Origin: a virus
Direction: 5' to 3' (one strand)
DNA: 64,000 bases
IMG/VR virus record: IMGVR_UViG_3300006903_000012
The position numbers and the translations under genes are program-made. Position 1 is the first letter of the stretch. Every line of letters begins with the position of its first letter. The notes under the pieces are model-generated. The model was not told the DNA's origin and did not search any database. It saw only the letters and a list, made by a program, of their open reading frames with translations. Shown one piece after another: positions 29,819 to 54,461 of this stretch.

Positions 29819-29824
29819 GTAACT

Positions 29825-31479: not shown

Positions 31480-31491
31480 ATACTGCTCCTT

Positions 31492-32196: not shown

Positions 32197-32205
32197 TTTT
32201 TTCTC

Positions 32206-32535: not shown

Positions 32536-33949
32536 GATTTATTTCTCCTGTATAAATCTGATTCACGTCTGGTGTCTGCCCAACTTCAAAGAACTTCTTT
32601 AGATACCCATCCGCCACTACTGTTATTTGATCGGGTGTAAATTGCAACCAAATAATCCACTCAGGATGATTGATACCCATTCGATAATCATTCCGAACTG
32701 CAAAAACTGTTTCAGAATGTTCTTCACGGAGTAATATCGAACCAGCATTTGATTTCTTATAATAACTTGGATGTTTTGCTTTGTCATCAATTACGGGTAC
32801 ATCGCCCACCACTGGTTCCAATTTTACTTCGGGCTCACTAACGACCTGTTGAACAACGATCGGTCCCAATGGTTGCGTGTCGCCGCTATAAATCTTATCA
32901 GCAAAAAATTCTGGCTCCACTAACTCAACATCATCCCACTTAAAGCCTAATTCGATTAACCATTTAGGATCACTCAACTTGATGTAGTGATTTTCACGAT
33001 ACGCATAGACTTGTGGATCAAAACCAATTTTCAGTAAACTAGCCGATAGATGCTTGTGATAATGAATAGGGTCCGACCAGTCTTGTGAATCGGTCCACTT
33101 TTTTGCATTAGCATATTTACCGACACCATGCTTCGCATCAATAAAAGTAATATTCGCTTGAACCTCGCGACTGTTGGCTTTTTGATCGCGCGGATGCCAC
33201 ACATGAAAACCAAAAATCGACTTGTAAAATAACCAGTCTGTGCCAGCCTCATCCGCTGTCAATCCAAGATCAGCATCTTCACCACCATGACCGACGATTC
33301 GCTCATCAAAACCACCCAGTTGCCAAAATAGATTTTTAGGATAAGAAATATTACCAGATAAGGCACCCAACCCCGAACCTTTACGAATGGCAGTTAGATC
33401 ATCTGTAAAATCAGCAGACCGAATATCTGGCCCAAAGGGACTATCGTTTGGAATACTTAACAACAATTGTCGAGACATAACTGTCTGCATTAGACTATCA
33501 AAACTCGGTGCCTTCCATAATAGTTCAGGCTCAAACCAATCAACTGGTGGCAACCAATGATACTGACCAACGATAATACAATCCGGTTGAGCTTCAGATG
33601 CCTTTGCATATGCCGCTAAAGCGTTTTCATTTAGAACAACGTCACTATCGACAAAAATGTAACGGTCACCGTTGGCATTGAAGGCGCCGATATTTCTAGC
33701 ACGTCCACCACGGAATCCTTTATTCGGACCTCCAGATAGATACCCTAACCAATTCCAAGCAGTAGATTTTCCTCCAGACATCCCATCAAAATTTAAATCA
33801 GCGACCCAATCCCCAGTTAAACCATCTGTTGAACCATCATCAACTACAATTACTTCAAAATCTGGTGGATTAATCTGCTGTGCTAATGATGCTAAACACA
33901 ACTTCAAATTTTCTAATCGATTATACACCGGGATAATAACTGACAGCAT
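32528..33949 (-). CDS. Family 2 glycosyltransferase with a long C-terminal extension (473 aa)
   Basis: Motifs LSVIIPVYNRLENL, VVDDGSTDG and FVDSDV, with an AAGGAG RBS. Confidence 0.75.
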   Translation of the reverse strand: MLSVIIPVYNRLENLKLCLASLAQQINPPDFEVIVVDDGSTDGLTGDWVADLNFDGMSGGKSTAWNWLGYLSGGPNKGFRGGRARNIGAFNANGDRYIFVDSDVVLNENALAAYAKASEAQPDCIIVGQYHWLPPVDWFEPELLWKAPSFDSLMQTVMSRQLLLSIPNDSPFGPDIRSADFTDDLTAIRKGSGLGALSGNISYPKNLFWQLGGFDERIVGHGGEDADLGLTADEAGTDWLFYKSIFGFHVWHPRDQKANSREVQANITFIDAKHGVGKYANAKKWTDSQDWSDPIHYHKHLSASLLKIGFDPQVYAYRENHYIKLSDPKWLIELGFKWDDVELVEPEFFADKIYSGDTQPLGPIVVQQVVSEPEVKLEPVVGDVPVIDDKAKHPSYYKKSNAGSILLREEHSETVFAVRNDYRMGINHPEWIIWLQFTPDQITVVADGYLKKFFEVGQTPDVNQIYTGEINRG

Positions 33950-33972
33950 TTCCGCTTTCTCCTTATAACTAA

Positions 33973-34512
33973 TTATTTATTGCTAAATTGAGTTTTGAGA
34001 ACTTCTGCAATTACATCTGCCGCCGTCGCCTTCTGAAACTGCGGCGGAACCTTTTTCTTAGCTGGTACTTGCTGCTGTGTATCTTCAGGAGCTTGCTCTT
34101 TTTGCTGTGCAGGAACTGCTGATTGTTCTTTTGGAGCTGGTTTCTCGTTTGTTGGTGCTTCCTCAGGCGCTTGCTCTTCAGTTTCTTCAACTGGCTCTTC
34201 GTTTTGCAGCCCTTGGCGCGCTTGCATTGATGCCAATCCACCTTGACTAGAAACACTATTTGGATCATCAGTCGGTTCAGGCGCTTCTGCTTTAGCCGCA
34301 CCCGCTTTTGTATACTTCATCGGATTAGCCGTCGCACCCGGATCATCATAAGTACACTCAACCCCAAAACCACCATTCAACCCAGTCCAAAAAGGACAAG
34401 TCCAACAAACTTTTGAAACGTGAACACCATCGAAATTAACAACATCACCCTGATAATGGCAATAGACCTGCCCATTCGGGTCGGTTGCATTTACATGTAT
34501 AACGTCTTCCAT
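33973..34512 (-). CDS. Hypothetical protein: Cys-containing N-domain plus an E/P/A/Q-rich low-complexity tail (179 aa)
   Basis: Minus ORF with an ATGA-type junction to the upstream gene. Confidence 0.55.
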   Translation of the reverse strand: MEDVIHVNATDPNGQVYCHYQGDVVNFDGVHVSKVCWTCPFWTGLNGGFGVECTYDDPGATANPMKYTKAGAAKAEAPEPTDDPNSVSSQGGLASMQARQGLQNEEPVEETEEQAPEEAPTNEKPAPKEQSAVPAQQKEQAPEDTQQQVPAKKKVPPQFQKATAADVIAEVLKTQFSNK

Positions 34513-35426: not shown

Positions 35427-35642
35427 ATACTTTCTCCAGAAGTTTTGTCTTGGTGATTTTGGCTGGTTAAACGAACACCCATTCTCCTGAGGTCTACCAC
35501 ATCACGGGATATTTTATATCTAAAACTGGATGTATCCGATCACCATCCATCGGACATTTCTCAAAGTGAAAGGATAAAAGTCTTTGAGCGTCTTTTCGAC
35601 TTATTAGTCACATTTAGCAGAACAATAAGTAAAGATAGTTAA

Positions 35643-35909
35643 CTAGTTACCGCTACTAACTTCACCTGCTGGCTTTGGATACATATGATAATCCGCCACC
35701 GTCTTACCCTGTTCATTCATTACATACACATGCCCAGAATCAATGATTCTAAAATGGTGTTCTTTACCTTCATAGAAGAAATAATGAACAGCACCAGGCA
35801 TTTTACTATCACTAATTGAAACATTATCTGAAGCATAAGTCTCAACCAATGTCACATCAGGAATAACATATTCTGAATTATCGTGCCGAATAACTTTTAC
35901 TGAAAACAT
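35643..35909 (-). CDS. Hypothetical small protein (88 aa)
   Basis: Minus ORF with an AAAGGAG RBS 8 nt upstream of the ATG at 35909. Confidence 0.55.
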   Translation of the reverse strand: MFSVKVIRHDNSEYVIPDVTLVETYASDNVSISDSKMPGAVHYFFYEGKEHHFRIIDSGHVYVMNEQGKTVADYHMYPKPAGEVSSGN

Positions 35910-35929
35910 ATTTTCTGCTCCTTTATCTG

Positions 35930-36680
35930 AATAAAAATATTTCTGTTAAATGCTTCTAATATCACCGGCGGTCCGCAATAGAAAGAAACCCCAATCTCGT
36001 AAGGTTAAGAAGAACTATCGCGTAGCCTTACCCTTCCAGTTTATTTTCGTAACCCATAGTTCCTAGCATCCTACCCGGATAGATCACAGTTACCTGTGCC
36101 CCTATCAATGGCAGTTATAGGATCGAGTTTTTCAACCAGAACAGATTGGCAGCTGACCAGACTGATCTAGCTCATGCTATTGGGTCCTGTCCATGAGCTA
36201 CGGCTGAATTGTTTATCTAAATACTATCTGGGTGTCTTACACCTTGCGGAATATTTATTCGGTATATTGTTCCCTCGATCTTAATCGAGTTTTGCTAGAG
36301 AACCATCGTCCCAGTTACATTCACAATGTTTATCGGCTCTCACCAGGAAGGCTTGTCTTATTGGCTTGCTGTCCAGATGCTTCTTGCATCGCCATCGCAG
36401 GCGACATCTGGGACTTGTCAATTCAAGTTCTGACTCTGGGCCGGCCATTATTCCGCTCACCTTGCTAGTCTGTCTTCGTTATTAATCTCGTTTCAAGATT
36501 TCATAACTTACTCGGTTGCGCGCCGAGACCAGACCGCAGATAGTAATGTTATTTAGTTGTTATTACTTAATTCCCAATTATCGAACATCCCGTTCCCAGG
36601 CGACCAGTGAAGCGGGAGGTATATGCGGCTTGCGCACACATATGCTTCACAACCAACGCAGTTCATTTCTTGTTATCACA
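35930..36680 (-). other. ORF-less ~750-nt structured region (element B) containing at least two degenerate group-I-like ribozyme cores
   Basis: There is no minus ORF of 60 aa or more. Module 1 (about 36600-36400) has CUCGG-cgcgcaa-CCGAGUAAG (36527-36511), a P6-like GUUAU...AUAAC, CAGACUAG (36472-36465), AGAGUCAGAACUUG (about 36440-36427) and a P9-like hairpin. Module 2 has an 8-bp hairpin AGCUCAUG/CAUGAGCU (36199-36169) followed by AGAUCAGUCUGG (about 36168-36157). Confidence 0.5.
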
Positions 36681-37633
36681 AAGGCTCTTTATCCTTTGTT
36701 TCTATATGTCACCATATAGTTCAGACTATATCTTCACCCAAAAACAAGGATGGCCCGCTCTCGTGGAAGAATTATTGTCCAAAATAAGGACTCACTTCTA
36801 GTCGTTACACCTTCAAGCAGTTTTCACTGCGAGCTTGGCTCGGTATTGCCTTATAAAGGTTTTCACCGACTTCACGGGCTTTATACGCGGCAGCTGCGAT
36901 GATCTTTTAAACCCTCTGTATCTCGGATCAAATTTTGCATGAATTTTTGAATGACAGCTCATGCAGACAGTAACAAGATTTTCTTTTGAATGATTATCTT
37001 TACCAAAATCAATATGATGAACCCTAAGAAGCTTCTTGGATGAACAAAGAACGCACTTATAACCATCTCGTTCTTTAATTCGTTTCTGAACCTTACCATT
37101 CCAACCAGGAGCATAGCCAACCAAAGAACCGTGCCCGTGTCGAAACCAGTGGTGTTTCTTTCCTCGATGAACATTCGGACTAGCTCGTAAAAGTTCCGAA
37201 TGTGCCTCCCTTTCTTTTGGATCATCAAACCTATTTGGTCTATACTTACAGACACACGACTTACAAAATTTAGCAGTTCTAGATTTTATCTGTTTTCCGC
37301 AATCTTTACAGAACCTTGGTTTTACAAGTTTCTTTTGCCTGCCAAATGATCTAGCATATTTAGCAAATTCAGAACCGTGAGGGAGTTGGTCTCCTGCTAA
37401 ATATTTTCTATAACAAGGCCGGCAATAACCAGTTTTTGATTTTCCGTAAGGCGGATTACTTTTATTCAGCTTAGTTTTACAAACCTTACACCTAGGACGA
37501 ATCTTTTCTTTACAGACAGGACAAAGATAAGCCCGTGGGTTTATCTTTCGATGCTTGCATCTAGGACATACTTTTTTGTAATTGTGCGCCATTCCGGCAT
37601 CCTTTGTTACTATCAAAACAGAGATAAAAACAT
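36681..37633 (-). mobile_element. Group I intron-like element carrying an HNH endonuclease ORF, immediately 3' of the capsid stop codon (I8); boundaries unresolved
   Basis: Minus-strand core has UCGGUGAAAACC...AAUACCGAG (about 36880-36840), GUGUAACGACUAGAAG (about 36813-36798), GAAGAUAUAGUCUGAAC (about 36735-36719) and the P9 hairpin CUAUAUGGUGACAUAUAG. This is the same consensus as the capsid introns. Confidence 0.65.
36813..37616 (-). CDS. HNH homing endonuclease with N-terminal CxxC zinc-ribbon repeats (probable start at the ATG giving MAHNYKK...)
   Basis: Contains CVLCSSKKLLRVHHIDFGKDNHSKENLVTVCMSCHSKIH (HNH motif) and several CPRC/CPVC/CKVC pairs. The 3' end overlaps the ribozyme P4-P7 region. 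Confidence 0.8.
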   Translation of the reverse strand: MIVTKDAGMAHNYKKVCPRCKHRKINPRAYLCPVCKEKIRPRCKVCKTKLNKSNPPYGKSKTGYCRPCYRKYLAGDQLPHGSEFAKYARSFGRQKKLVKPRFCKDCGKQIKSRTAKFCKSCVCKYRPNRFDDPKEREAHSELLRASPNVHRGKKHHWFRHGHGSLVGYAPGWNGKVQKRIKERDGYKCVLCSSKKLLRVHHIDFGKDNHSKENLVTVCMSCHSKIHAKFDPRYRGFKRSSQLPRIKPVKSVKTFIRQYRAKLAVKTA

Positions 37634-37855
37634 CTACTGTATTATATCATATTCTACCGCGTAAACTTCAAAAGATATTGCCGTACACCCGGGCATCAAG
37701 TCCTTGAAACTGAGCGGGGTCTGTGTTGATTTGTAAACCAGCGGTTCACCGTTGTGGAACACACGCAACGGATAAACCGTCGAACTAAACGTCTTATCAC
37801 CCACCGCCGTCGCCGGGTACCGGAAGTCAGGCACCAGGATCAAGCGACCGATAGA
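37634..37855 (-). CDS. Major capsid protein, predicted exon 8 of 8 (SIGRLILVPDFRYPATAV...YAVEYDIIQ*)
   Basis: The track ORF 37634..37843 starts at an internal TTG. The frame is open upstream to a G (37856; alternative 37865) that can serve as the terminal G of intron I7. Confidence 0.6.
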   Translation of the reverse strand, partial: SIGRLILVPDFRYPATAVGDKTFSSTVYPLRVFHNGEPLVYKSTQTPLSFKDLMPGCTAISFEVYAVEYDIIQ

Positions 37856-38287
37856 CGTGTCTATCGCATCCTTTATTTGTTATCACTCAAAAAATAATGA
37901 GTGAGCGCAAGCATTTCTGTTGCACTCTGCAACTTATCATTTGTTGCAGAACAGACTATATCATATTCCGGAACAACCCGGAACTCGCCCTCTTAGTCGT
38001 TACACATTTAGGATAGTCGAGATTTATTTAGGACCGAACCACAAAATGGACAATAAGTTACTGGAACTCCATAGCAGAATTCTTTATCTGATAAAGTTAA
38101 GAACCAAACATCAGATAATTTTTCAATAGCCGCATCTGGAACCTTATCTTTACAAACATGTGTCTCAGTAATCTCATCTTCCCACATTCTCTAACTATCT
38201 CCTTTAGCTCGGTGTTATCATTTCAGACTTCCACCGAATTCGAGCGATTTGCACACAACCATTACTGATTGTGGGGCCTAAAAATTA
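37856..38287 (-). mobile_element. Group I intron I7 in the capsid gene (with a 59-aa ORF in the P6 region)
   Basis: The minus strand begins UAAUUUUUAGGCC (P1 with exon GGCU, U-G at 38288). P2 is CACAAUCAGUAAUGGUUGUG. The core has UUCGGUGGAAG...AACACCGAG, GUGUAACGACUAAGAGGG, P8 GUUCCGGGUUGUUCCGGAAU, and AUGAUAUAGUCUG, with P9 CUGCAAC...GUUGCAG. Confidence 0.8.
38008..38187 (-). CDS. Intron-borne small ORF (59 aa) MWEDEITETHVCKDKVP...YCPFCGSVLNKSRLS, Zn-ribbon-like
   Basis: Hand-translated (below the track cut-off). ATG at 38187 has an AAAGGAG RBS about 10 nt upstream; there are C-x-n-CxxC cysteines. Confidence 0.4.
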   Translation of the reverse strand: MWEDEITETHVCKDKVPDAAIEKLSDVWFLTLSDKEFCYGVPVTYCPFCGSVLNKSRLS

Positions 38288-38372
38288 AGCCAAAACAAAG
38301 CCGGGAACAATCTGCCCGTCTTTCTGTTGGATGATTTGCATGATGGGATGAGTTGAGCCGAGCTGAGTTGCG
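38288..38372 (-). CDS. Major capsid protein, predicted exon 7 ((I)ATQLGSTHPIMQIIQQKDGQIVPGFVLA)
   Basis: 85 nt between the terminal G of I6 (38373) and the U-G splice site of I7 (38288). Its first nt completes the AT left by exon 6, and an in-frame UAA follows directly in the intron. Confidence 0.55.
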
Positions 38373-39447
38373 CCCAAACTTAAATATCCCTTCTTTCAAT
38401 CGCTCTAGCATCACTGCTAGGATTAGACTATACCTTCATCCACAAACATTATGGATGTCTGCGTGTTGCAGGTATTTTATATTTGGCTTCGAATTTTTTA
38501 ATTTTTTCAATAAGTTTAGATTCATTTTTCAAATCATCTGTTCGAAGAATAAGAAGTTTGTATCCTCTAAGTCGATAATCCTTGTTTCTTTTCTTGTCAC
38601 GTTCAAAACTTTCTTCTCGACTATGCCAATAGTTACCATCATATTCAATAATCAGGTTATGCGTTCGGTGAACAAAATCAGGTACATGTCCCGCTACCCA
38701 GACCTTGCCCGAACCAACGAAACGATAATTGAATTTATGTTCTTTAAGGATACCTAACAACTTCTTTTCGTGTGAGTTCGCATGCCGTCGACTGCTACCC
38801 ACAATCTTCTTAGCAAACTCGATAATCTCCTCAGGCGATTTCCGAGACCAAGTTTTACTAAAACTGGCCGCTCGTTTTCTGGAAATGTCATCGTTACCCC
38901 AATTAGCTGCGTACATTTTTACCCAATTTTCAGGATCCGATAACCATTCAGTAGTTTGTATTGATTTTAGTTGACTGAAAGCTTCCAACTCACTAGGAGA
39001 TTTTGAATACCAAGATTTTAGAAAAGCTGCAACCCTTCTTTCTCTCACATCTGGATTATCATAGTTATTTTTCCTAAGTTTTTCTTGAAACTCAGGATCG
39101 GTATGATTTTCCGACATGATTTTGGATCGCAACTTCCTAAATTTTGGAGTTTGCTTAGATTCTCGCATCTTCTTTCTATAAACAGGGTCTTTAAACTTTT
39201 CTGACATTACCTTTCGCATTTTCTTCCGAAATGCTTCTTTCTCGGCTTCAGTCATTCGATCCCATTTAGACAGCTTTTCGCCATTCTTATTTTTCTTAGC
39301 CATAAAAATACCTGCCTCGGATTTCTCCTCAGTCGTTACGGGGCTAAATGTTTGATTACATCAGCTTCCCTCGGTGTTGTCTACTTGAGATTTCACCGAT
39401 ATAGCAGAATTTTACATACCCATTACTGGATAAGGCGACAAAAATTT
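38373..39447 (-). mobile_element. Group I intron I6 in the capsid gene, carrying a Vsr-like endonuclease in P8
   Basis: P1 pairs exon GCGAU (39452-39448) with GUCGC. P2 is UAUCCAGUAAUGGGUA. The core has AUCGGUGAAAUC...AACACCGAGGGAAG, CCCCGUAACGACUGAGGAGAAAUCCGAG, and 3' GAUGAAGGUAUAGUCUAAUC, with P9 CUAGCAGUGAUGCUAG. Confidence 0.8.
38449..39303 (-). CDS. Intron-encoded Vsr-like (PD-(D/E)XK superfamily) homing endonuclease with NUMOD3-like basic repeats (284 aa)
   Basis: The C-terminus GHVPDFVHRTHNLIIEYDGNYWHS resembles the Vsr pattern (PD..........DG.FWH). The N-terminus has repeats of the form ..E.R.K....K. The stop lies inside the P8/J8-7 region. Confidence 0.65.
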   Translation of the reverse strand: MAKKNKNGEKLSKWDRMTEAEKEAFRKKMRKVMSEKFKDPVYRKKMRESKQTPKFRKLRSKIMSENHTDPEFQEKLRKNNYDNPDVRERRVAAFLKSWYSKSPSELEAFSQLKSIQTTEWLSDPENWVKMYAANWGNDDISRKRAASFSKTWSRKSPEEIIEFAKKIVGSSRRHANSHEKKLLGILKEHKFNYRFVGSGKVWVAGHVPDFVHRTHNLIIEYDGNYWHSREESFERDKKRNKDYRLRGYKLLILRTDDLKNESKLIEKIKKFEAKYKIPATRRHP

Positions 39448-39686
39448 ATCGCTTCTAGCGCTTTCGGATGACCAAAGATGTGCGTTGGTTTCGCACACCC
39501 CGCCACCAAAAAGTTGTCGAACTCTTCAATGTCAAAGCTGCCAGTCGGATTTGCATTCACACGCGCGCCGTTAGCGGCCGTGACTTGGGTCGTAATACCA
39601 TCAAAGGCTTTCGAGTTAGTATTGCGATTACCCTTAACGATAGCCCTGTCCCAATATTGAAGCGTTAAAATTTCTTGCAGCTTGAT
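39448..39686 (-). CDS. Major capsid protein, predicted exon 6 (IKLQEILTLQYWDRAIVKGNRNTNSKAFDGITTQVTAANGARVNANPTGSFDIEEFDNFLVAGCAKPTHIFGHPKALEA-)
   Basis: A 239-nt open frame, hand-translated and checked codon by codon. It matches the HK97-family capsid signature as I remember it (....a.i.G......F.G.......p..i..hP....). The start could also be 39680 or 39677. Confidence 0.7.
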
Positions 39687-40023
39687 CTCTTTTCATGGTT
39701 ATCCACTATTACTAGTGGCATGGACTATTCCTTCATCCGCGATTTGCGGAGCCTGCGTATTGCAAGTTACTTATTACTTGCCTCGCCTTTCGGCTCAGTC
39801 TCTACGGGGTCACGAAGACTTCCCTCGGAATTATCCATCTTATGATAATGGATTTTATCTTTCTCAATAGTAAGATAATCAAAAACAATCTCATTCTCAG
39901 AAAGATATTTTTCAATGTCTAAAAGTTGATTAGTTGTTAGCATAAGTTTGGACTTATCCGATATGAGCAGGTTATTATTGCAAGCAATTACTCGCTTGCC
40001 AGGCTATCATTGAGATTTCCTTA
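39687..40023 (-). mobile_element. Group I intron I5 in the capsid gene (with a 58-aa ORF through P5-P8)
   Basis: It begins UAAGGAAAUC...AUAGCC (P1 with exon GGGGU, U-G at 40024). P2 is GCAAGCGAGUAAUUGCUUGC. The core has CUCAUAUCGG...UUCCGAGGGAAGUCUUCGUGACCCCGUAGAGACUGAGCCGAAAGGCGAG and GAUGAAGGAAUAGUCCA, with P9 CCACUAGUAAUAGUGG. Confidence 0.75.
39767..39943 (-). CDS. Intron-borne small ORF (58 aa) MLTTNQLLDIEKYLSENEIVFDYLTIEKDKIHYHKMDNSEGSLRDPVETEPKGEASNK
   Basis: Hand-translated, ATG at 39943. It overlaps conserved ribozyme core sequence, so coding is doubtful. Confidence 0.3.
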   Translation of the reverse strand: MLTTNQLLDIEKYLSENEIVFDYLTIEKDKIHYHKMDNSEGSLRDPVETEPKGEASNK

Positions 40024-40047
40024 ACCCCCATTACTTGAACGCAAGTT
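40024..40047 (-). CDS. Major capsid protein, predicted micro-exon 5 (NLRSSNGG)
   Basis: 24 nt between the G at 40048 (1 nt after the I4 P9 hairpin) and the U-G splice site at 40024, in frame, followed by an intron-initial UAA. Confidence 0.4.
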
Positions 40048-40954
40048 CCCATCTATTACTAGATGGCTTAGACTATACCTTCAAAGGCCGCGTATTATCA
40101 AGACAAAATAAAAGTCTCGATCTCGGATTTCTCCTCAGTCGTTACGGGGTCAAACTTTTACAAGTCGACTTCCCTCGGTATTACCCTCGTCTTCAGCGGT
40201 CGGGTTTCACCGATATGAGCGGCGTGCCGGGCCATTTCTTATTTTCCGATAAAGGCCGGAAAGCTAATTTTCTGCTTCCTGCTTCCGATCAATTTCTGCA
40301 TCACTTTCTCATCGAAGCTTTTTATCTTATCAGCTACCTGCCCAATATTTTTTAACTCTTCAGCCCAAAGAATCAGAACCGAAAATCCTTGCTTTTTGAT
40401 ATACTCAATACGCTTCACATCATAGCACCGCATTTTTCCATCTTTCCTATGATGGGTATACCCAAAAACATCGATAACAGCTTTAGCGTCCACTCGACAA
40501 AAATCAGGGCAGAATCTGCCAATCATTAGTCGACCATTCCCAACATACTCATACGGCAGATCCATCAATTTTAGAATATCCCGCACTTGCTGTTCGGGTA
40601 ATGATAACGGACGATTCCACAACGAGCTAGAAAGTCTTTCAGCACCATAAGTCGGATCTGTCTTATACAAAATTCTAGACTTCTTCCTTGCCTTCTTGGC
40701 GGCCTTACTTCTAACATCAGTTGTTAAGTGAGCTAGCCCGGTTTTCTCAAAAAGACCCTGCTTCATTCTTATTGAGTGTTCCTTACCCTGTTTAGCTGTT
40801 TTCTTTTTTCCTTCGGGTGTAGCATGATACAACTTCTTTGACTTTGAAATCTTCTTTGCGACTGCTTCACGTTCCTTTGCTGAACGGTTCTTCCAAAGTC
40901 TTTTTGCAGCTATTGAACATTTAATGCCTTTACTGGTCTTTTGCATATAGAATT
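40048..40954 (-). mobile_element. Group I intron I4 in the capsid gene, carrying a Vsr-like endonuclease upstream of P3
   Basis: Proposed P1 pairs exon GGUU (U-G at 40955) with GACC. After the ORF comes a full core with CUCAUAUCGGUGAAACCC...AAUACCGAGGGAAGUCGAC, CCCCGUAACGACUGAGGAGAAAUCCGAG, P8 AUCGAGAC...GUCUUGAU, and GAAGGUAUAGUCUAAG, with P9 CCAUCUAGUAAUAGAUGG. Confidence 0.8.
40239..40946 (-). CDS. Intron-encoded Vsr-like homing endonuclease (235 aa)
   Basis: YEYVGNGRLMIGRFCPDFCRVDAKAVIDVFGYTHH is paralogous to HE 41290..42126 (YEFVGNGKLMIGRYCPDFKRDDYRALIELGGFRH). The N-terminus has basic repeats. Confidence 0.65.
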   Translation of the reverse strand: MQKTSKGIKCSIAAKRLWKNRSAKEREAVAKKISKSKKLYHATPEGKKKTAKQGKEHSIRMKQGLFEKTGLAHLTTDVRSKAAKKARKKSRILYKTDPTYGAERLSSSLWNRPLSLPEQQVRDILKLMDLPYEYVGNGRLMIGRFCPDFCRVDAKAVIDVFGYTHHRKDGKMRCYDVKRIEYIKKQGFSVLILWAEELKNIGQVADKIKSFDEKVMQKLIGSRKQKISFPAFIGK

Positions 40955-41249
40955 AACCCCATCAAGTTGCGTACTGAGCTGCGAAATACCAAGCCCTTGA
41001 ATCCGGGCCACCGCAATCGAATGGCGGATTTCTTCGTTCGTCAAACTTTTCTTCCCGCCAATATACCGGCGGGTCTGACTCTTATTCGACCCATCGTGAG
41101 TATATTCCTCAGGACAAGAACCAGGGTCGAAGAAACCTTGATAAGTTGCGCCGTCACCACTGAAGTCTAGCGTAGTCATTTCACGCCAAAGATCAGCTTG
41201 GTAATCAGTCACAACTTCTGGAAGAACTCTCCAGTTCGTGATTTCTTCG
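40955..41249 (-). CDS. Major capsid protein, predicted exon 4 ((I)EEITNWRVLPEVVTDYQADLWREMTTLDFSGDGATYQGFFDPGS...GISQLSTQLDGV); the 5' end may be 41261 or 41264
   Basis: This is most of track ORF 40910..41254 (whose TTG start is an artefact). It ends at the phase-0 GTT (40957-40955). The three possible acceptor Gs are 41250, 41262 and 41265. Confidence 0.55.
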
Positions 41250-42270
41250 CACAACGTTAAGCATCATTTTCAGTTACCTGAAAGATAGACTATACCTTCA
41301 TCCTCTTTCGAGGAGCTCTGCGTATTACCGTATTGGTTTCTTTTAGTCGTTCCGACTTTTGTATCCTCTTATCAAAAATCAATAATTTAACCGCTAAGGA
41401 TTCCAAATCTTGTAATTCATCTTCATCGATAACTAAAGTCTGATATCCTTGAGATTTTATGTACTCAGTTCTTTTCTCAACTCGATCTCTCAGCTTTTTG
41501 GTCTTCTGATATGCCTTATGCCGAAAGCCACCTAGCTCAATCAAGGCGCGATAATCGTCTCTCTTAAAATCAGGACAATACCGTCCAATCATCAGTTTAC
41601 CATTACCAACAAATTCATAAGGTAATCCCAGTAGCTGTAAAAACGATTCAAGTTGGATCTCAATTCTGGACATCGAGCGCTTATTTAGAATTTTAGAAAC
41701 AGTATCAGCATGAACATCGCAAGATTTGTAATGCTCGTTTATTGATTTCTTAAACTTCTTCCTTCGAACAAGTCCGCCAATTTTCCAAATTTTCTTCTGT
41801 ATCTCAGATAGATACTTCCGATGAGATGCTGTTCTGACAGTTTTTCGTAGCGCTGTAGTTCTTCGTTTTCGTATTTTGGGGTCTGTCCATTCCAATTTTC
41901 TCATCTCACTGCGTCGTTTCTGCTTATCTGGATCAGAGTAATAGATATCTTGTTGTCGCTTTGCTCTTTCTTTTATTTTGCTAGGAGTCAGAATCCGCTT
42001 CTGAGCGACACTCTTCGCTTTATTTACCCTCTTAAGTTCTGACTTAGATATCTTATACTTGTATGCTCGTACTGGCTTTCCTGTTCTTGGACTTGTTCTA
42101 ATTTTATTTTTCCGGCTCAAGGCCAATCCTCCTACTTTACAATACGGTCTCGCCTTTCGGCTCAGTCGTTACGGGGTCACGAAGACTTCCCTCGGTGTTG
42201 TCCCTGTGGGAGTTCACCGATATGAGCAGAGTTGTTTCATGTGTATTACTACACAAGGAGACCTTAGTTG
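41250..42270 (-). mobile_element. Group I intron I3 in the capsid gene, carrying a Vsr-like endonuclease in P8
   Basis: P1 pairs exon GAGAU (42275-42271) with GUCUC. P2 is UGUGUAGUAAUACACA. The core has GCUCAUAUCGGUGAACUCCC...AACACCGAGGGAAGUCUUCGUGACCCCGUAACGACUGAGCCGAAAGGCGAG and 3' GAUGAAGGUAUAGUCUAUC, with P9 UUUCAGGUAACUGAAA. Confidence 0.8.
41290..42126 (-). CDS. Intron-encoded Vsr-like homing endonuclease (278 aa, TTG start with AGGAGG RBS)
   Basis: See 40239..40946. The N-terminal half is Lys/Arg-rich and repeated, and the stop lies inside J8/7-P7'. Confidence 0.65.
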   Translation of the reverse strand: MALSRKNKIRTSPRTGKPVRAYKYKISKSELKRVNKAKSVAQKRILTPSKIKERAKRQQDIYYSDPDKQKRRSEMRKLEWTDPKIRKRRTTALRKTVRTASHRKYLSEIQKKIWKIGGLVRRKKFKKSINEHYKSCDVHADTVSKILNKRSMSRIEIQLESFLQLLGLPYEFVGNGKLMIGRYCPDFKRDDYRALIELGGFRHKAYQKTKKLRDRVEKRTEYIKSQGYQTLVIDEDELQDLESLAVKLLIFDKRIQKSERLKETNTVIRRAPRKRMKV

Positions 42271-42293
42271 ATCTCAGTTGGATCAATCGGTTG
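42271..42293 (-). CDS. Major capsid protein, predicted micro-exon 3 (QPIDPTE + 2 nt); alternative acceptor gives 42271..42287
   Basis: 23 nt between the G at 42294 (after the I2 P9 hairpin CUAUAUC...GAUAUAG) and the U-G splice site at 42271. It leaves phase 2, which exon 4 completes. Confidence 0.4.
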
Positions 42294-42486
42294 CTTTGTT
42301 ATCTATATCTTCACATTCGATATAGGTCAGACTATCTCATCACCCACGTTTGTGGGGCTTCCCTCTTAGTCGTTACACATTGCCCGACTGCAGTTAGCAA
42401 TCTGCTTAGCTCGGTGTTGGCATCACAGCGTTCACCGAATTCGAGAAGTTTTATATCAGTTAATTACTTAACTGTACCCCCAACCG
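42294..42486 (-). mobile_element. Minimal (about 193 nt) ORF-less group I intron I2 in the capsid gene
   Basis: P1 pairs exon ACCCU (42491-42487) with GGGGU. P2 is AGUUAAGUAAUUAACU. The core has CUUCUCGAAUUCGGUGAACGC...AACACCGAGCUAAGC, GUGUAACGACUAAGAGGGAAG, P8 CCCCACAAACGUGGG, and UGAUGAGAUAGUCUGACC. Confidence 0.8.
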
Positions 42487-42522
42487 AGGGTATTGGGCCG
42501 TAAAATCGGTTGGCGTCACATA
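42487..42522 (-). CDS. Major capsid protein, predicted micro-exon 2 (YVTPTDFTAQYP)
   Basis: 36 nt, phase 0 to phase 0, between the G at 42523 and the U-G splice site at 42487. An alternative frame exists, so confidence is low. Confidence 0.4.
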
Positions 42523-43020
42523 CGGTTGTGGACATTTTGTTACTTAGGAAGTGATTCTATAAATTCATCTATTGTTGCGAACTCTGTGTAGCGTCCATTG
42601 ATTATATCTTCGTCTACTTTGGCTTCTTTCTGTTGCCATTCCTTTGTCCAAAACCATTGCTGATCTAACAAAGAACTTGCTAACAACAGACTAGTCCAGA
42701 TACTGACAAGTCGTCCGTTTGATTTCCTCAAAGCTATATAATCAAACAAGAAGACCCTTGGAACCTGAAGCAATCGACCAAACCAAGAACGTCGCTTCAA
42801 TGGATAAACCATAACTTATCTCCTAAGGATCAATCATTTCTGTTGATCTCTTACACTTCTAATTTGTGCAAGTTCAGACTATCTCTTCGTCTTGAAAGAC
42901 GCTATCCGTATAGTCGTTACACATTTAGTTAATTGATTAACTTTTAGCTCGGGATTAGCGTCGCAGCCTTCCCCGAATTAGGATAGATCGCATAAATAAA
43001 TCTTATGCCCCTCACTATTG
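42523..43020 (-). mobile_element. Group I intron I1 in the capsid gene (with a 90-aa ORF 3' of P9)
   Basis: P1 pairs exon UCCUU (U-G at 43021) with GAGGG. P2 is GCAUAAGAUUUAUUUAUGC. P3 is UAUCC/GGAUA. P4 is UUCGGGG...UCCCGAG. The rest of the core is GUGUAACGACUAUACGGAUAG, P8 CGUCUUUCAAGACG and AAGAGAUAGUCUGAAC. Confidence 0.8.
42540..42812 (-). CDS. Intron-borne ORF of unknown function (90 aa)
   Basis: AGGAG RBS 7 nt upstream of the ATG at 42812. No nuclease motif recognised. Confidence 0.45.
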   Translation of the reverse strand: MVYPLKRRSWFGRLLQVPRVFLFDYIALRKSNGRLVSIWTSLLLASSLLDQQWFWTKEWQQKEAKVDEDIINGRYTEFATIDEFIESLPK

Positions 43021-43296
43021 AAGGATCACCGGATCCGTCGCCTTTGTCACCAACCCGCCATCCAACCCTTTGGATTTCAAAATATGCTCTGTCATAGACT
43101 TCACGAGCAACGGATCAGCTTCGAAACCCTGGGCATTCAAATTCTTCAAAACTTGTTTCGTAATTTCGTCAGCGCCGTATGGATCATTCAGATTCACACC
43201 AGCGCTTTTTGCAAACAGACGAGCCGCATCATTGGCCGACATACCAGCCACCGGCAACACTTGCGGCACCGTCAACATATTATCAAAAGCATCCAT
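43021..43296 (-). CDS. Major capsid protein, predicted exon 1 (MDAFDNMLTVPQVLPVAG...KATDPVIL)
   Basis: ATG at 43296 lies 20 nt after the scaffold stop. 92 codons run up to the U-G splice site, and the track ORF stop (43015) lies 2 codons into the intron. Confidence 0.6.
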
Positions 43297-43316
43297 GTTA
43301 CAAAAATTCCCTAAAC

Positions 43317-44888
43317 TTAATATCTGGGACCCGACACTGTCGATTGCGCTAATTCAGAAGCGCGAAATTTCTTGATCGGCACCTGATCGCCACTTAACGC
43401 TGGAAATGATAAATCACCAGCTTGTGGAGCTGATTGAGTCGGAGTATCTGGCCGAAGCATTCCCAACGACTTACGCTGGGGACCTTTTCGACTAGATACT
43501 GACTCAACTTCTTTTTCGGTCAAGGCTTTGATTAGCGTTTCTACTTTTGCTTCCAAACCAGCTGTCTGCGACTTGTATCGAGCTTCTACCTGCTCAACCG
43601 CATGTGTTACCGCGGCCTGCACCGTCGCAGTTAAATCTACCTGACTCGGTTCTGTCGTTTGGTTAATAAAATCAACTACTGCTGGCACGAACTCATTCAG
43701 AGACTTCTGCATAAGTTCGCGTTTTTCCAGCCGACTGTAATTACCACTATCTAATGTCTGCAAAAATGAGTCGGACCATTTTTGCAGAAATGCCTCAGCC
43801 GGAGATATGGTTGCGGACTTAACATCGGCATTTGCTTGCGTCCGAACCTTGACATCTGTATCGACTGGCGTTGTTGATTTCTTTTTTGCAGCCTTGACTG
43901 GAGTCGGTGGCTGCATCGCTTGCTTTTTCGCATCATCGGTCGGTTGTTTAGAAAACATTAGCCGACCTTCTTCTGCTTCATCTTCGGGTGTTTCAGCGGC
44001 GTCCACTTCCGGATCTTCCATTGCCTCTTCTTGCTGTTGGTCAATTTGCGGATGTTGATTGATCTGTTCTTCCGGAATAGGGGCTGGATTGCCACCTACT
44101 TTTTGCATCGGTTGGGGCGCTGGATTCATATCAGTTGCCGCTGCTTGACCTTCAGCGGTAATTCCACCGTCTGGAGTTGCAGCTAATGAATGAGCATAAT
44201 CCCGCACAGCACTAACCAAATTAGCAGCATGTGCCAAAAGTTCACCTTTATTTCCCATTCCCGGCGACGCTAGTGCTTTCTGCACTGATTCCAAGGCAAC
44301 TATCGCATCGGCCACTAATTCATCTTCAACATCTGATTTTCTATAAGAAACTTCAGGCGAGGCTTCAACTGACATATCATCCGAATTAGTTTCATCTTCA
44401 GACATCTCAACGTCTTCAGTCCCATCAACTTCAGAATGAGTATGTTGTTTCTTAGCCTTATGTTTCTCAACTTCATCATCTGGTGCTGACTCATGTCCTT
44501 CATCTACATCTTGCTCAGTTTCATCAGTCAACTCATCCGTCGGCTCGTCTTCAGCATCAATGACATCCGGATTCGGCTGCAATTCATCTAAATCTTCACC
44601 ACTATAGTTCTGAGTATCGGCCTGCATCTCTTCTGGCAACACACTCATTGTACCATTAGCTGTTGCTTTACCAACCATCTTGCCACATTCCGGACAATCA
44701 ACATCTTCACTGGAAAACGAAGTCTTGCAGTTCGGGCATTCTCGCATGTGCGACTTTATAACTAATTCTGTTTCCGTATTCGATTTTCCAACTCTCTTTG
44801 ATAAATCTTTCTGAACTAATTTCTGTGCCAGCACCGGATTATTCAAAACGGCCCTAGCGTCGTCTTGCTTTGTTTTAATTTGTCCCAT
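43317..44888 (-). CDS. Scaffolding-like protein (523 aa, acidic, N-terminal CxxC...CxxC ribbon, C-terminal coiled coil)
   Basis: It sits between the protease-containing ORF and the capsid gene. It has strongly Asp/Glu-rich low complexity and CPNCKT...CPECG. Confidence 0.55.
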   Translation of the reverse strand: MGQIKTKQDDARAVLNNPVLAQKLVQKDLSKRVGKSNTETELVIKSHMRECPNCKTSFSSEDVDCPECGKMVGKATANGTMSVLPEEMQADTQNYSGEDLDELQPNPDVIDAEDEPTDELTDETEQDVDEGHESAPDDEVEKHKAKKQHTHSEVDGTEDVEMSEDETNSDDMSVEASPEVSYRKSDVEDELVADAIVALESVQKALASPGMGNKGELLAHAANLVSAVRDYAHSLAATPDGGITAEGQAAATDMNPAPQPMQKVGGNPAPIPEEQINQHPQIDQQQEEAMEDPEVDAAETPEDEAEEGRLMFSKQPTDDAKKQAMQPPTPVKAAKKKSTTPVDTDVKVRTQANADVKSATISPAEAFLQKWSDSFLQTLDSGNYSRLEKRELMQKSLNEFVPAVVDFINQTTEPSQVDLTATVQAAVTHAVEQVEARYKSQTAGLEAKVETLIKALTEKEVESVSSRKGPQRKSLGMLRPDTPTQSAPQAGDLSFPALSGDQVPIKKFRASELAQSTVSGPRY

Positions 44889-44895
44889 CTAACAC

Positions 44896-47800
44896 CTAAG
44901 AAACTGACACTAGTGTTTCGGCCACAACCGGCACTCTGGTAAACGCAAAATGTTCGATCCAGCCCCTCAGAAAATCACGCTGATTACTGGACTTCTTAAT
45001 TACACCATCTGAATCGGGATAAAATCCCATTGAAATTCTAATACAATCTTCATGCGGAATTTTATTTTGAATGTCTGATTTGACTTCTTGATACAACTGC
45101 CGACCTAATGCTGTCGGAAAAAAGATACCCCGTGCTTTTGGTTGCCGACCGTCTATCCAAATGTCAGTTGCGATCCCAGCGCTCAATCGTTCAGTTCCAC
45201 ATTTAGGACATAGATAATCAGTTAACGATTTGAACTCATAACCGCAGTCACAATCATAGAGAGAATAATGCGCGACACTGGCAAACGGCGGCGGAACTGT
45301 TTTTGATTTGAACCGTCGAATGGCTTCTTCATAAAATGCTTTAGTAACTTTATCGCCTTCAATATCTCTATCGAATTTGGTGGTAGTGGCTTCCCACTCC
45401 ATCATCCCATCATCTTTTATGCGAGCTTTTGTAATTCGCCACTCAGTTCGGAAAACATCAGAACTAAAAGAGATGGGAACTAAAGTTTGTGACTTTTTAA
45501 CTTGTGCGTCTGAAAAATCATCTAAGATTTTATCTGCCAGTTTAGAGTTAAGGGCATAATAATTTTTCAAATGTTTTTTAGCTTCCGAAATACTATCTTT
45601 ATCTGAGCTATCTCGAGATAGATGTGACCAAACATCACCAACAATTGCAGTCCCATAACGATCAACAAGTTTCGAAAGCATCTTATTAGAAGCTACATCT
45701 GAGTTATATCTACGTCTGGCATTATTATTTGTTGATCCTGAAAGAGTTGGCGCAACCTTTTGAAAAGCATTCTGATTTCCGGTGCCCTCTCCAACTCCAA
45801 TAACATGCTCACCAGGCAAAGAATTACTATGACCATGTGTACTTTGGTCATGCTTGCCTGGGAGATGTTTCTGTTCACCACCACTCTTCTCTTCTGCATC
45901 TGCTCGCCAAGCATCTAAACATTCATACTCTTTTGGATTCTTATTCGGTTGGAATCCATCTCGTGCCTTCTCAAACGCATCGGCCGCTTGTGAATATTTA
46001 CCAGCGTGATAAGCATTCCACCCTTGCGCAATCCATTTACCTGAATAGTATTTGTAATATTCTGACCAGATAGCTTTCAAGCAGCTTTGATCGGCCTTGG
46101 AAATAAGCGACTTACCTACCTTATCCAAAAGAACATCTTGATAATCGGCAATTTGTTCGCCCAAATTCTCAATGCCTTGCGACAACCTAGTTCTGGCTGT
46201 GGGATCTTTTGTTGAAGACAGATCTTCTTTTGCTCGAGCACGCTGTTGTTGAGCTAAATCGATTCTAGAATGTAACTCGGAAGTAGATAACTTGTTAAGT
46301 ATCTTTTGGTCTCGCTGTCTTTCATCGGCAGTACGGTTTGATAGAACTTTTCTTGTTGTCGGAACCTTCGCCCCGCCTCCTACCTTCTTCTTCGCCGCTG
46401 CAATGCTAGTATCATTATCTTTGGCATATTGTCGAGCCGCCGCATCGCGCAGTTGAGCAGATGTATGCGCAACTTTCCCACTGGCGCCTTTGATGCCAGC
46501 ATGACTCGACTGGTCGTGTTGTCCAGGGAGATGTTTTTCTTCCAATATATGTCGACTTGCCGCTAAATATGCTTTTAGCGACTTAAAATCTGAACCTTTG
46601 CCACGACCATAAATATCAAGTCCTTTTGAACTATGATGCTCCCACTTGCCAGAATCAGCAATATATATAGAATGTTCCAACTGATTACGTCCGTTACCCG
46701 TAGTGGACTCATATAGATCTACACCTCGTATAGGCAACGGATTATATTTAAATCCGTGTTCACTTAGCATCTTAGTAAATTCAGGTGACCGCGGAGTTCT
46801 GGTTCGACCATGACTGCTTTGGTCATGTTTACCCGGCAAATGCTTCTGCTTACTCTCATGTATCTCATTATACTTCTTGTGAACCTCAGGAATTTTATGA
46901 TCTTCTGAACCATCGTCTGCCAGTTGACCGATCTCCCGCAACTCATCTTGATAAAGAAATCGGTGGTAACCTTTTGGAAGTAGTGACTTTGTTTCTTCAT
47001 CAGTCTCGAATTCAATATCATCCAATGCAGAAGTAGCTAATTCGATTACATTCCGCCAAGCATCCCGTTCAGCTGACGTATAGTTATAAATCTTCCTAGG
47101 TTTATCAAGCTCTCTCGACAAGGCAGAAACCGCGGAATTAATGTCATGCTGTGTCTCTGGAGTAAGGTCTTCGATCTCACTGGACTGTCGTAACTGTCTC
47201 AACAAGTCTCGACCAGCACCTCGTCCGGCCCTGGTTCCCGGTCCGAACTTTTTCAGATCAGACAGATGTGACTGACCATAACCAGCATGACTTTGTTGGT
47301 CATGTTTACCCGGCAAGTGTTTCTCAACTGCCGCCACAAACAAACTCTTCTGTAACAAATAATTCTGTCGCGCTTTTTCGACTTCATTATGCGGTTGATA
47401 CTCATGCCCGCATTTTGAGCATTTATGAGTTCCGCGTCCAATATGTGGATCTTCAACTGTACTACCGCATTTAGGACAAGCGGCAGTTGGGAAATGTTTC
47501 TCAGTCATTGATTTCTTGTATTGCTGATTCGAGAAGATATTATCACTTATAAATCGATCCACTTGTAAATTAGCATCATCAAAATCACCACGATCATAAT
47601 CTACACTTTTCCAATCGAAATTATCTCTGTCTCCATTAGAAACAAAAAACTCTGCTAATACAGTTCTGCCAGAATCGGGCAAAGCCGGTATAGTATCAGC
47701 AACATAATTCAACTTAACATCATTTGACATCTGATTTATCCAAACATCAGCTGCTTGTTTTTTTGATTTCGCACGTCCACTGCGTACTAAGTCTGATGTT

Positions 47801-48216
47801 ATTTGTGACTCAAAACTTTTAACAAGTTCCTTTGCTGCACTTGTCACATCGGCATCAGATGCTTTATATGGATCAGGTCTCTTTTGTCTCATCTTCCCGG
47901 CATGTGTTCCTTGATCGTGCTTGCCGGGAAAGTGCTTTTCCGATAACGATTTCTGATTCTGCTTAGCAACAAATGCTAACAATTCATCAGGATCAATTTC
48001 TATTTCTCCGCCACCGAAATTATGTGCGCCAAGATGCGCTTCTGGAATCGATTTCTCGTGCTTGAAATACTCGACTTCAGCCAGACGCTTTGTGGCCCAG
48101 TCTTTACTAGGTCCGCAACCTAGATTTCTTTTTCCGTCTTCACTAACCACACACCACTGATTGCCTTTTTTCTTAATCCGCTTTTCAACCAACTCGCTGA
48201 TTACAAAGTCGGCCAT
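44896..48216 (-). CDS. Modular 1106-aa polyprotein ending in an HK97-type (S78-like) prohead protease domain; five HDQ motifs
   Basis: The C-terminal ~200 aa match my recollection of prohead proteases (FDRDIEGDKVTKAFYEEAI...FASVAHYSL...IRISMGFYPDSDG...HFAFTRVPVVAE). The upstream modules are separated by five KH(F/L)PG(K/Q)HDQxxH(A/G) motifs. Confidence 0.6.
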   Translation of the reverse strand: MADFVISELVEKRIKKKGNQWCVVSEDGKRNLGCGPSKDWATKRLAEVEYFKHEKSIPEAHLGAHNFGGGEIEIDPDELLAFVAKQNQKSLSEKHFPGKHDQGTHAGKMRQKRPDPYKASDADVTSAAKELVKSFESQITSDLVRSGRAKSKKQAADVWINQMSNDVKLNYVADTIPALPDSGRTVLAEFFVSNGDRDNFDWKSVDYDRGDFDDANLQVDRFISDNIFSNQQYKKSMTEKHFPTAACPKCGSTVEDPHIGRGTHKCSKCGHEYQPHNEVEKARQNYLLQKSLFVAAVEKHLPGKHDQQSHAGYGQSHLSDLKKFGPGTRAGRGAGRDLLRQLRQSSEIEDLTPETQHDINSAVSALSRELDKPRKIYNYTSAERDAWRNVIELATSALDDIEFETDEETKSLLPKGYHRFLYQDELREIGQLADDGSEDHKIPEVHKKYNEIHESKQKHLPGKHDQSSHGRTRTPRSPEFTKMLSEHGFKYNPLPIRGVDLYESTTGNGRNQLEHSIYIADSGKWEHHSSKGLDIYGRGKGSDFKSLKAYLAASRHILEEKHLPGQHDQSSHAGIKGASGKVAHTSAQLRDAAARQYAKDNDTSIAAAKKKVGGGAKVPTTRKVLSNRTADERQRDQKILNKLSTSELHSRIDLAQQQRARAKEDLSSTKDPTARTRLSQGIENLGEQIADYQDVLLDKVGKSLISKADQSCLKAIWSEYYKYYSGKWIAQGWNAYHAGKYSQAADAFEKARDGFQPNKNPKEYECLDAWRADAEEKSGGEQKHLPGKHDQSTHGHSNSLPGEHVIGVGEGTGNQNAFQKVAPTLSGSTNNNARRRYNSDVASNKMLSKLVDRYGTAIVGDVWSHLSRDSSDKDSISEAKKHLKNYYALNSKLADKILDDFSDAQVKKSQTLVPISFSSDVFRTEWRITKARIKDDGMMEWEATTTKFDRDIEGDKVTKAFYEEAIRRFKSKTVPPPFASVAHYSLYDCDCGYEFKSLTDYLCPKCGTERLSAGIATDIWIDGRQPKARGIFFPTALGRQLYQEVKSDIQNKIPHEDCIRISMGFYPDSDGVIKKSSNQRDFLRGWIEHFAFTRVPVVAETLVSVS

Positions 48217-54432: not shown

Positions 54433-54461
54433 AATAGACTAATCTCTTTTCACCAATAAAT

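Follow-up and report, generated by a model that had tools for sequence, protein, structure and literature searches.

How can a phage obtain its major capsid protein from a gene whose coding sequence lies in short pieces spread over 6.7 kb? This question is raised by IMG/VR virus record IMGVR_UViG_3300006903_000012, of which the whole 64,000-nt stretch analysed here is referred to as the window, and in which all long open reading frames (ORFs) lie on the minus strand. An earlier note on this DNA had read the minus strand between an ATG at 43296 and a TAG at 37634 as an HK97-type capsid gene, divided into eight exons by seven related group I introns. The core of that reading, an HK97-type capsid gene split by many related group I introns, is supported by the sequence evidence assembled below, with its details corrected. 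The HK97-fold major capsid protein (MCP) gene occupies positions 43296-36567 of the minus strand and consists of nine exons and eight group I introns (I1-I8), the introns together amounting to 5395 nt or 80 % of the gene. After splicing, its coding sequence is 1335 nt (444 aa) rather than the 1200 nt obtained before. The locus is very probably the sole MCP gene of an uncultured tailed phage of about 111 kb, and eight mobile group I introns have settled in it.

The borders of the exons were set by tblastn of homologs against the window, and then by two splicing rules, namely a U·G wobble at the 5' splice site and a G as the last nucleotide of the intron. The resulting product is colinear with uninterrupted homologs, free of gaps at seven of the eight junctions, and up to 80 % identical over its full length to the closest homolog, P0001. 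In a comparison with L065, a relative whose gene has no introns, 78 % of first, 89 % of second and 41 % of third codon positions have identical nucleotides, a pattern that argues for purifying selection across all exons. The assignment to the HK97 type, made earlier from a signature in exon 6, is supported by a fold search with an AlphaFold2 model of P0001 (pLDDT 71, pTM 0.60), which displays a long spine helix and a beta-rich P domain; in Foldseek, the model matches the capsids of SPO1, HK97, T5 and SU10, other capsids and encapsulins, all at probability 1.0 and with E-values from 7e-12 to 4e-8. Profile searches yielded only a weak, partial match to PHROG 212, 'major head protein' (6e-5), and no match in Pfam. 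The spliced protein also has no match among 50,697 GenBank phage records, and a cultured relative is therefore lacking in that collection. A second capsid homolog was not found by tblastn in the 64-kb window.

Evidence for the ribozymes comes from covariance models, helix pairing and the position of the splice sites. The seven minus-strand cores proposed between 43296 and 37634 are all matched by Rfam RF00028, exactly between the coding pieces, and the motifs given for them (UCGGUGAA...ACCGAG, GUAACGACU and GAxGxUAUAGUC) are present. RF00028 exceeds its gathering score of 50 bits at four sites in the window (42850-43031, 42305-42496, 36702-36940 and 53326-53505), I1 and I2 scoring 55.4 and 52.4 bits, and a permissive scan of 35500-44000 adds matches at 42031-42280, 41267-41386, 40049-40294, 39702-40045, 39213-39458, 38404-38540 and 37927-38297. 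In this 8.5-kb search, I3-I7 score 18-36 bits (E 2.5e-6 to 0.37). All matches are on the minus strand, and no further site was found in the 64-kb window. Two covariance models of our own, R1 and R2, were used beside RF00028. With P1-P9 (plus P7.1/P7.2) annotated by hand in nine introns, each ungapped helix is 100 % Watson-Crick or G·U paired, even as the helix sequences vary between copies; 5' and 3' strands swapped across introns pair at only 38-56 %. Run blind, RNAalifold recovers P3, P4, P5, P8 and P9 in one of the two intron subfamilies described below (A), with compensatory changes in 15 of 31 pairs, and P3-P6, P7.1, P7.2 and P9 in the other (B), with compensatory changes in 20 of 36 pairs. 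In all eight introns, the P1 U·G wobble falls on a 5' junction set independently by protein homology, and every intron ends in G (for I1-I8, ..AAUG, ..AAAG, ..GAUG, ..CUUG, ..CAUG, ..AUUG, ..AAAG and ..AAUG). A P10 helix of 4-6 bp can be formed in I2, I3, I4 and I6.

The 5' half of the gene contains its shortest exons. Exon 1 (43022-43296, 275 nt; located with P0001 and P0002 in tblastn) starts at ATG 43296, 20 nt past a 523-aa upstream ORF, and ends in ...AUCCU at 43022 instead of 43021, its final U forming the U·G of P1 (CCU|UCA / UGAGGG). Intron 1 (42533-43021, 489 nt; subfamily A; core 43021-42845; R2 152 bits) is wholly paired from P1 to P9 and has the 3' end ...ACAAAAUG. Exon 2 (42487-42532, 46 nt; ..PQPYVTPTDFTAQYP), whose start moves from 42522 to 42532, was placed by tblastn and returns the residues PQP that were absent from the earlier splice. 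Next is intron 2 (42294-42486, 193 nt; subfamily A; R2 147 bits), which has no ORF and forms a P10 of 6 bp (CAACCG/CGGUUG). Exon 3 (42271-42293), likewise a tblastn match, has just 23 nt, encodes QPIDPTEI, and at its end pairs in the P1 of intron 3 (GAGAU|C / GGUCUC). Intron 3 (41262-42270, 1009 nt; subfamily B, with P7.1/P7.2) harbours an EDxHD/DUF559 ORF (42126-41290) in its P7.2 loop and is matched in halves, both by Rfam (42031-42280 and 41267-41386) and by R1 (93 and 47 bits). Exon 4 (40956-41261, 306 nt; LTLCEEITNW...QLDGV; tblastn E=2e-55) returns LTLC, also missing before; its start is 41261, which the earlier note had listed as an alternative to its preferred 41249, and its end is 40956 rather than 40955. 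Intron 4 (40042-40955, 914 nt; subfamily B; core 40233-40042; Rfam 35.7 bits) has the P1 GGGU|UA / UGGCCC, within whose loop lies an EDxHD/DUF559 ORF (40946-40239; Pfam DUF559 5e-9). Exon 5 (40024-40041), at just 18 nt the shortest, encodes (V)VQVMG(V); homologs match it by tblastn as QVMGVKE, seven of seven residues identical to P0001 and in order between exons 4 and 6, in a frame other than the one first assigned to it.

In the 3' half, intron 5 (39694-40023, 330 nt; subfamily B; Rfam 27.1 bits, R1 161 bits) carries a 100-nt insert in P5 with a 58-aa ORF (39943-39767), pairs its P1 as GGGU|UA / UAGCCU and ends in ...ACCAUG. Exon 6 (39448-39693, 246 nt; KEIKLQEIL...HPKALEAI; tblastn E=4e-43) begins at 39693 and not at 39686. 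Intron 6 (38397-39447, 1051 nt; subfamily B) holds an EDxHD/DUF559 ORF (39303-38449) in its P7.2 loop, is matched in halves by Rfam (39213-39458 and 38404-38540) and R1 (106 and 57 bits), and has a P10 of 5 bp. Exon 7 (38288-38396, 109 nt; KKGYLSLGAT...PGFVLA; tblastn E=2e-12) was extended from 38372 to 38396, which returns KKGYLSLGA. Intron 7 (37871-38287, 417 nt; subfamily A; Rfam 33.6 bits, R2 89 and 47 bits) starts with an in-frame UAA, has the P1 GGCU|UAA / UUAGGCC and contains a 59-aa Zn-ribbon-like ORF (38187-38008) in its P6 loop. Exon 8 (37656-37870, 215 nt; DAIDTSIGRL...FEVYAV; tblastn E=5e-37) now begins at 37870 instead of 37855 and regains DAIDT. Intron 8 (36664-37655, 992 nt; core 36895-36696), with 58.9 bits the best Rfam match in the window, has a P7.1/P7.2-like insert in its core, the P1 GCGGU/GCCGC and the 3' end ...AGAAAUG; an HNH endonuclease ORF (37616-36813) lies within its P1 loop and overlaps P3-P6. 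Exon 9 (36567-36663, 97 nt; TALVVKHMCAQAAYTSRFTGRLGTGCSIIGN) ends with TAA 36569-36567 and matches the P0001 C-terminus at 90 % identity (tblastn E=2e-13). In every intron, a stop in the capsid frame occurs 0-16 codons in. Among the early stops pointed out previously, the UAA of I7 and the TAG two codons into I1 stand, whereas the UAA of I5 is out of frame once the junction is corrected. A scan of the capsid locus for promoters and terminators gave nothing informative.

The introns had been described as copies of one architecture. Instead, they fall into two subfamilies, and the AGUAAU P2 loop said to be common to all is not in I1, I4 and I8. Subfamily A, i.e., I1, I2, I7 and the core at 53326-53505, is compact and without P7.1/P7.2 (signature ..CGAAUUCGGUGAA..ACCGAGC.AA..GUGUAACGACUA..), and I8 resembles it except for extra sequence inserted between P7 and P3'. 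To subfamily B belong I3, I4, I5 and I6, which have the signature ..GCUCAUAUCGGUGAA..ACCGAGGGAAG..CCCCGUAACGACUGAG, followed by a GAAA-capped P7.1, a long P7.2 and P3'. Four introns have homing endonuclease ORFs, those in I3, I4 and I6 being of the EDxHD/I-Bth0305I type and that in I8 of the HNH type. The three EDxHD ORFs are paralogous, and all score above the cut-off for Pfam DUF559 (8e-9 for I6); additionally, the I6 ORF matches the catalytic domain of I-Bth0305I (PDB 3R3P, E=5e-6). Together with a fourth paralog in the window, they align around a conserved VG.G...PDF...G. The I8 ORF has a Pfam HNH match of 22.3 bits (cut-off 21.4), a match to PHROG 1271 (1e-17) and the motif ...RVHHIDFGKDNHSKENLVTVCMSCHSKIH. 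Placement of the ORFs also differs: I3 and I6 have them in the P7.2 loop, I4 and I8 in the P1 loop, where they separate the 5' splice site from the guide. The first description of EDxHD homing endonucleases came from a recA intron of a Bacillus phage (PMC3239194). The 3' tail of I1 contains a 90-aa ORF (42540-42812, minus strand) with its own Shine-Dalgarno sequence, AGGAG, and no match in Pfam or PHROG. The C-terminal part of this ORF (..DEDIINGRYTEFATIDEFIESL) presumably resembles antitoxin-type tails. Directly past P9, both I1 (42835-42845) and I7 (37915-37925) have an internal copy of the 3'-end motif (CAACAGAAAUG) on the minus strand, at some distance ahead of the true 3' splice site. It looks as if the I1 ORF and an I7 hairpin were added behind an older 3' end, and alternative 3' splice sites are possible.

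For expression of the capsid protein, the primary transcript of 6.7 kb would fold into eight ribozymes, each of which would use an internal guide to pair with the 4-7 nt at the end of the exon before it, forming P1 with the U·G at the cut. Free guanosine would then attack the 5' site, and the exons would be ligated behind the terminal G of the intron, the outcome being the 1335-nt mRNA for a 444-aa HK97-fold capsid protein. The early in-frame stops would keep ribosomes off the ribozyme cores. The endonuclease genes in I3, I4, I6 and I8 presumably spread their introns into intronless capsid alleles at co-infection, with I1, I5 and I7, which have only short ORFs of no known family, and the ORF-less I2 riding along or moving by other routes. 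Self-splicing, the order of splicing, endonuclease activity and homing at the MCP locus are all things that we infer from the nucleotide sequence.

Several points weigh against this account. Five of the eight cores, those of I3-I7, score under the Rfam gathering threshold; this is explained by ORFs and inserts that interrupt or lengthen them, but the result is sub-threshold all the same. Splicing of the locus is predicted from sequence, and the fold evidence was taken from P0001, an 80 %-identical homolog. Intron 4 is without P2 and P8, the latter being precisely missing relative to I3, I5 and I6; its minimum-free-energy fold has P3-P7.2 and P9 and no P8, and as a ribozyme it may be weak or dependent. 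Finally, the canonical splice of exons 5 and 6 reads GVKEIK, whereas VKEKE is invariant in 33 of 33 aligned homologs. The borders of exon 5 are, in fact, the least certain of the gene, its start being 40041 or 40047 and its end 40024 or 40018. For the 3' splice site of I4, position 40042 has in its favour a 4-bp P10 (CGUU/AAUG) and a ...CUUG end; the rejected candidate, 40048, would give ..DGVTCVQVMGV.. and has neither a P10 nor a ..UG end. The canonical 5' site of I5, GGGGU|UAAGG (guide UAGCCU), leads to ..QVMGVKEIKLQ.. with the predicted exon 5/6 junction QLDGVVQVMGVKEIK. AAG GAA directly follows this site, and the canonical cut costs one copy of the invariant KE. Cutting after A40018 brings back VKEKE and has no U·G and no matching guide, and a cut after U40015 has no guide either; both were placed behind the canonical site. 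Positions 40042 and 40024 were kept because the remaining 12 junction pairs of this intron family are canonical without exception, both in this gene and in those of relatives. The canonical 5' site of I5 is ranked first over the site that restores KEKE, by a slight leaning only; either the protein differs at this point or the splice site is unusual.

Do any of these points favour a different account of the locus? The exact model proposed earlier (seven introns, eight exons, 399 aa and a stop at TAG 37634) does read stop-free, and already finds 962 homologs, the best of which are uninterrupted proteins of 440-450 aa (72 % BLASTP identity), because most of the exon sequence is included. As a full capsid product, however, it is barely credible. 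It is refuted by alignment to the homologs, which exposes gaps exactly at its junctions (PQP, LTLC, KKGYLS and D.IDT), an unrelated exon 5 that has NLRSSNGG in place of QVMGV, and the loss of the last ~31 conserved residues, and all of the missing pieces are recovered by shifting seven of its 14 junctions by 1-24 nt and adding intron 8 and exon 9. The TAG at 37634 is located seven codons into the eighth intron (37655-36664), i.e., the one that Rfam scores highest in the window, ahead of the ninth exon (36663-36567). Endonuclease ORFs between coding pieces might also suggest that the inserts are inteins or free-standing endonuclease genes, with the capsid pieces translated separately. This is refuted by the sequence and next to impossible given that the capsid frame is stopped soon past each 5' junction, that Pfam detects no Hint/intein domain, that every insert has a group I core, and that coding pieces as short as 18 and 23 nt are too small to be genes of their own. 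Furthermore, a gene of which 80 % is intronic, with one intron devoid of P8 and one junction that breaks an invariant motif, could be the decaying capsid gene of a defective phage that was overrun by selfish elements and makes no functional capsid mRNA. Such decay is very unlikely in view of nine exons without a frameshift or stop, a codon-position pattern indicative of strong purifying selection, the intact helices of the seven other introns, the occurrence of the I4 endonuclease ORF on four contigs of 50-200 kb, and the absence of a second capsid homolog from the 64-kb window.

A further alternative concerns I4, which might not be autonomous and might need a helper, either a protein or the adjacent I5; or else the I5 ribozyme might remove I4, exon 5 and I5 as one intron of 1.26 kb, giving an in-frame product six residues shorter, possibly beside the full form. 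The 5' splice sites of I4 and I5 are almost identical (AUGGGGU|UAA and AUGGGGGU|UAA), which is why the I5 guide could use the I4 site, and the guides UGGCCC and UAGCCU are each able to pair with either. Moreover, P8 has been precisely deleted from I4 in comparison with I3, I5 and I6, and skipping of exon 5 keeps the frame because that exon is 18 nt. On the other hand, the I4 core helices other than P2 and P8, its guide and its 4-bp P10 are intact, and exon 5 is argued to be used, given its perfect QVMGVKE match to the closest homolog, for which we estimate the probability of a chance match in the gap at ~1e-6. Dependence or composite removal of I4 is hence considered quite unlikely. A broader proposition holds that no protein-coding gene seen so far in viruses of prokaryotes is as intron-dense as this one, that its capsid supply hinges on eight ribozyme reactions in a single transcript with exons as short as 18 and 23 nt, that I4 is removed with or by I5, and that the intron load acts as a timer or a competition device. 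It is rather unlikely as well; if it were true, a phage structural gene would show group I splicing of a cooperative or alternative kind, and its intron load would have a role beyond pure parasitism.

The eight-intron capsid gene, as favoured here, is an outlier in its family. From public metagenome and metagenome-assembled genome (MAG) assemblies, 148 loci encoding the same capsid family (1.8 Mb) were fetched, and in nearly all of them the capsid gene is uninterrupted. Rfam found only one intron among these relatives, and R1 and R2, which also match the window and its own contig, found the rest, in a few loci only. Three loci (L001, L057 and L072) have one intron past TALVI, its site being 14 nt further downstream than that of I8; two (L058 and L059) have one at DYQAD|; two others (L062 and L063) have two each, at LTLQ|YWDR and RVFH|NGEP; and L061 has one at QYP|QP, the same nucleotide position as I2, to which it is orthologous, with a compensatory change in P7. 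An additional locus (L070) has a partial intron match at the contig end, just beyond the capsid match. All of the relatives' junctions that were read out are canonical, and the capsid family has at least 12 distinct intron insertion sites, all at conserved codons. Automatic annotation breaks up the capsid gene of the present phage into a series of short ORFs labelled hypothetical, as in the gene calls for L064, and therefore intron-aware annotation is needed to recognise capsid genes in such phages. One of the four contigs with the I4 endonuclease ORF, SRR5585387_261051 (run SRR5585387; 111.5 kb, of which about 47 kb lie beyond the window), has called genes that repeat the intron-ORF arrangement of the window. 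A scan of GTDB returned four short MAG contigs (Anaerolineae, Woesearchaeota and Bathyarchaeia), which are probably binned phage fragments, and no host is therefore inferred. Among GenBank phages, the only DNA match to the locus is 70 nt of the I8 3' end, in Clostridium perfringens phages. There, the segment (36670-36739, minus strand) is 90 % identical to part of a 1.07-kb unannotated gap between two coding sequences labelled 'minor tail protein', found in phiCP13O (L149, 15594-18663), phiCP34O, CPQ4 and 17DYC, and also partially matched by R1. This gap is probably an unannotated, related intron that splits a tail gene.

The gene order around the capsid gene, i.e., portal, 1106-aa ORF, 523-aa ORF and MCP, fits a head-gene module and the scaffold-to-capsid position ascribed to the gene. 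The portal belongs to a 1689-aa ORF (48201-53270, minus strand) that also has an SPP1-gp7-like head-morphogenesis domain (PHROG 2468) and, at residues 1234-1335, a 2H phosphoesterase / 2'-5' RNA ligase domain (PF13563); an RNA-end-processing domain is odd in a head protein, given a capsid mRNA that needs eight splicing events. The 1106-aa ORF (44896-48216, minus strand) has five copies of KH(L/F)PG(K/Q)HDQ..H and no family match apart from a weak one to a PHROG without assigned function. The ninth group I core (53326-53505, minus strand; Rfam 54.7 bits) lies immediately upstream of the portal ORF, within an element spanning 53305-54466, and ahead of this core is the fourth EDxHD/DUF559-type endonuclease gene (53560-54432, minus strand). 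Two 5' splice sites are candidates for this core. Position 54466, the end of a 150-aa ORF, fits in phase and has a weak guide, and 53493 has a perfect local P1 hairpin, yet no ORF can cross it; portal genes of the relatives are without the 150-aa extension. Directly downstream of the head genes, at ~18000-34000 (minus strand), is a block of glycosyltransferase, epimerase/dehydratase and methyltransferase genes, also seen in L062 (6771-11986), which may serve glycosylation of the virion or the host surface.

As for what the locus offers, it is a test bed for many ribozymes folding and splicing on one transcript while ribosomes follow, for the minimum length of an exon between two group I introns, and for the question of why some capsid alleles are intron magnets when about 140 relatives are clean. 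We take the introns to resemble those of T4 td, nrdB and nrdD (subgroup IA2) in their J6/7-P7 (UAACGACUA), J8/7-P7' (GAGAUAUAGUCUG) and ..AAUG 3' end, and presumably also in the GGUGA loop of P9 in I8, the presence of P7.1/P7.2 between P7 and P3' (subfamily B and I8) and the early in-frame stops. Unlike the T4 introns, those of subfamily A in the capsid gene (I1, I2 and I7) are without P7.1/P7.2, and the endonuclease ORFs are in the P1 or P7.2 loop, not in P6 or P9. Fungal mitochondrial cox1 genes have many endonuclease-bearing group I introns at conserved sites, along with micro-exons, and their splicing often depends on maturases; cox1 is, however, an organellar gene, whereas the gene considered here is that of a virus of prokaryotes. 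Among phages, orf142 of Staphylococcus phage Twort has three introns.

In the literature searched, which is incomplete, no phage gene was found to have as many as seven introns, and to that extent the novelty claimed for the locus holds; however, a five-fragment crAss-like capsid gene and phage genomes with 14-18 introns have been published. In cluster J mycobacteriophages, the capsid gene has an intron whose splicing is required for the capsid protein (PMC3706429), although that capsid family is unrelated and its gene has a single intron. The recA intron of Bacillus phage 0305phi8-36 (I-Bth0305I; PMC3239194) encodes an endonuclease of the same family as those of I3, I4 and I6, but that case involves one intron and another host gene, and the endonucleases here are predicted. 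The nrdE genes of Twort and Brochothrix phage A9 contain two introns and three introns plus an intein, respectively (PMC3653736), i.e., at most three introns per gene, in cultured phages of Firmicutes, with splicing in Twort shown experimentally. The Jug (jumbo gut) phages have a mean of 18.5 group I introns per genome, situated in essential genes, and metatranscriptome reads confirmed the splicing of 37 of 76 predicted introns (PMC12363816 / PMC12880540); their terL and nrdD genes are in two to three fragments in genomes of 360-402 kb with gut Bacteroides hosts, as opposed to eight introns in a 1.3-kb coding sequence. In the Zeta group of crAss-like phages, where genomes have up to 14 introns, the capsid gene of cMAG OLRF01000054 is in five fragments (Yutin et al. 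2021, PMC7886860). This genome shares with the present one an MCP gene cut by endonuclease-bearing group I introns, a metagenomic origin and a high density of introns. It differs in belonging to another phage lineage with another capsid family, in its division into five fragments by four inserts, three of which have intron-type domains, versus nine exons and eight introns, and in that its introns were recognised by protein domains, whereas cores, junctions and covariation were worked out here. Multi-intron phage capsid genes have thus already been described, and the present gene is an extreme example of an ordinary mechanism: the chemistry is that of the textbook, and it is the scale that stands out, with eight introns in a coding sequence of 1.3 kb compared, among the published examples located, with at most three in Twort and A9 and four inserts in the crAss Zeta capsid gene.

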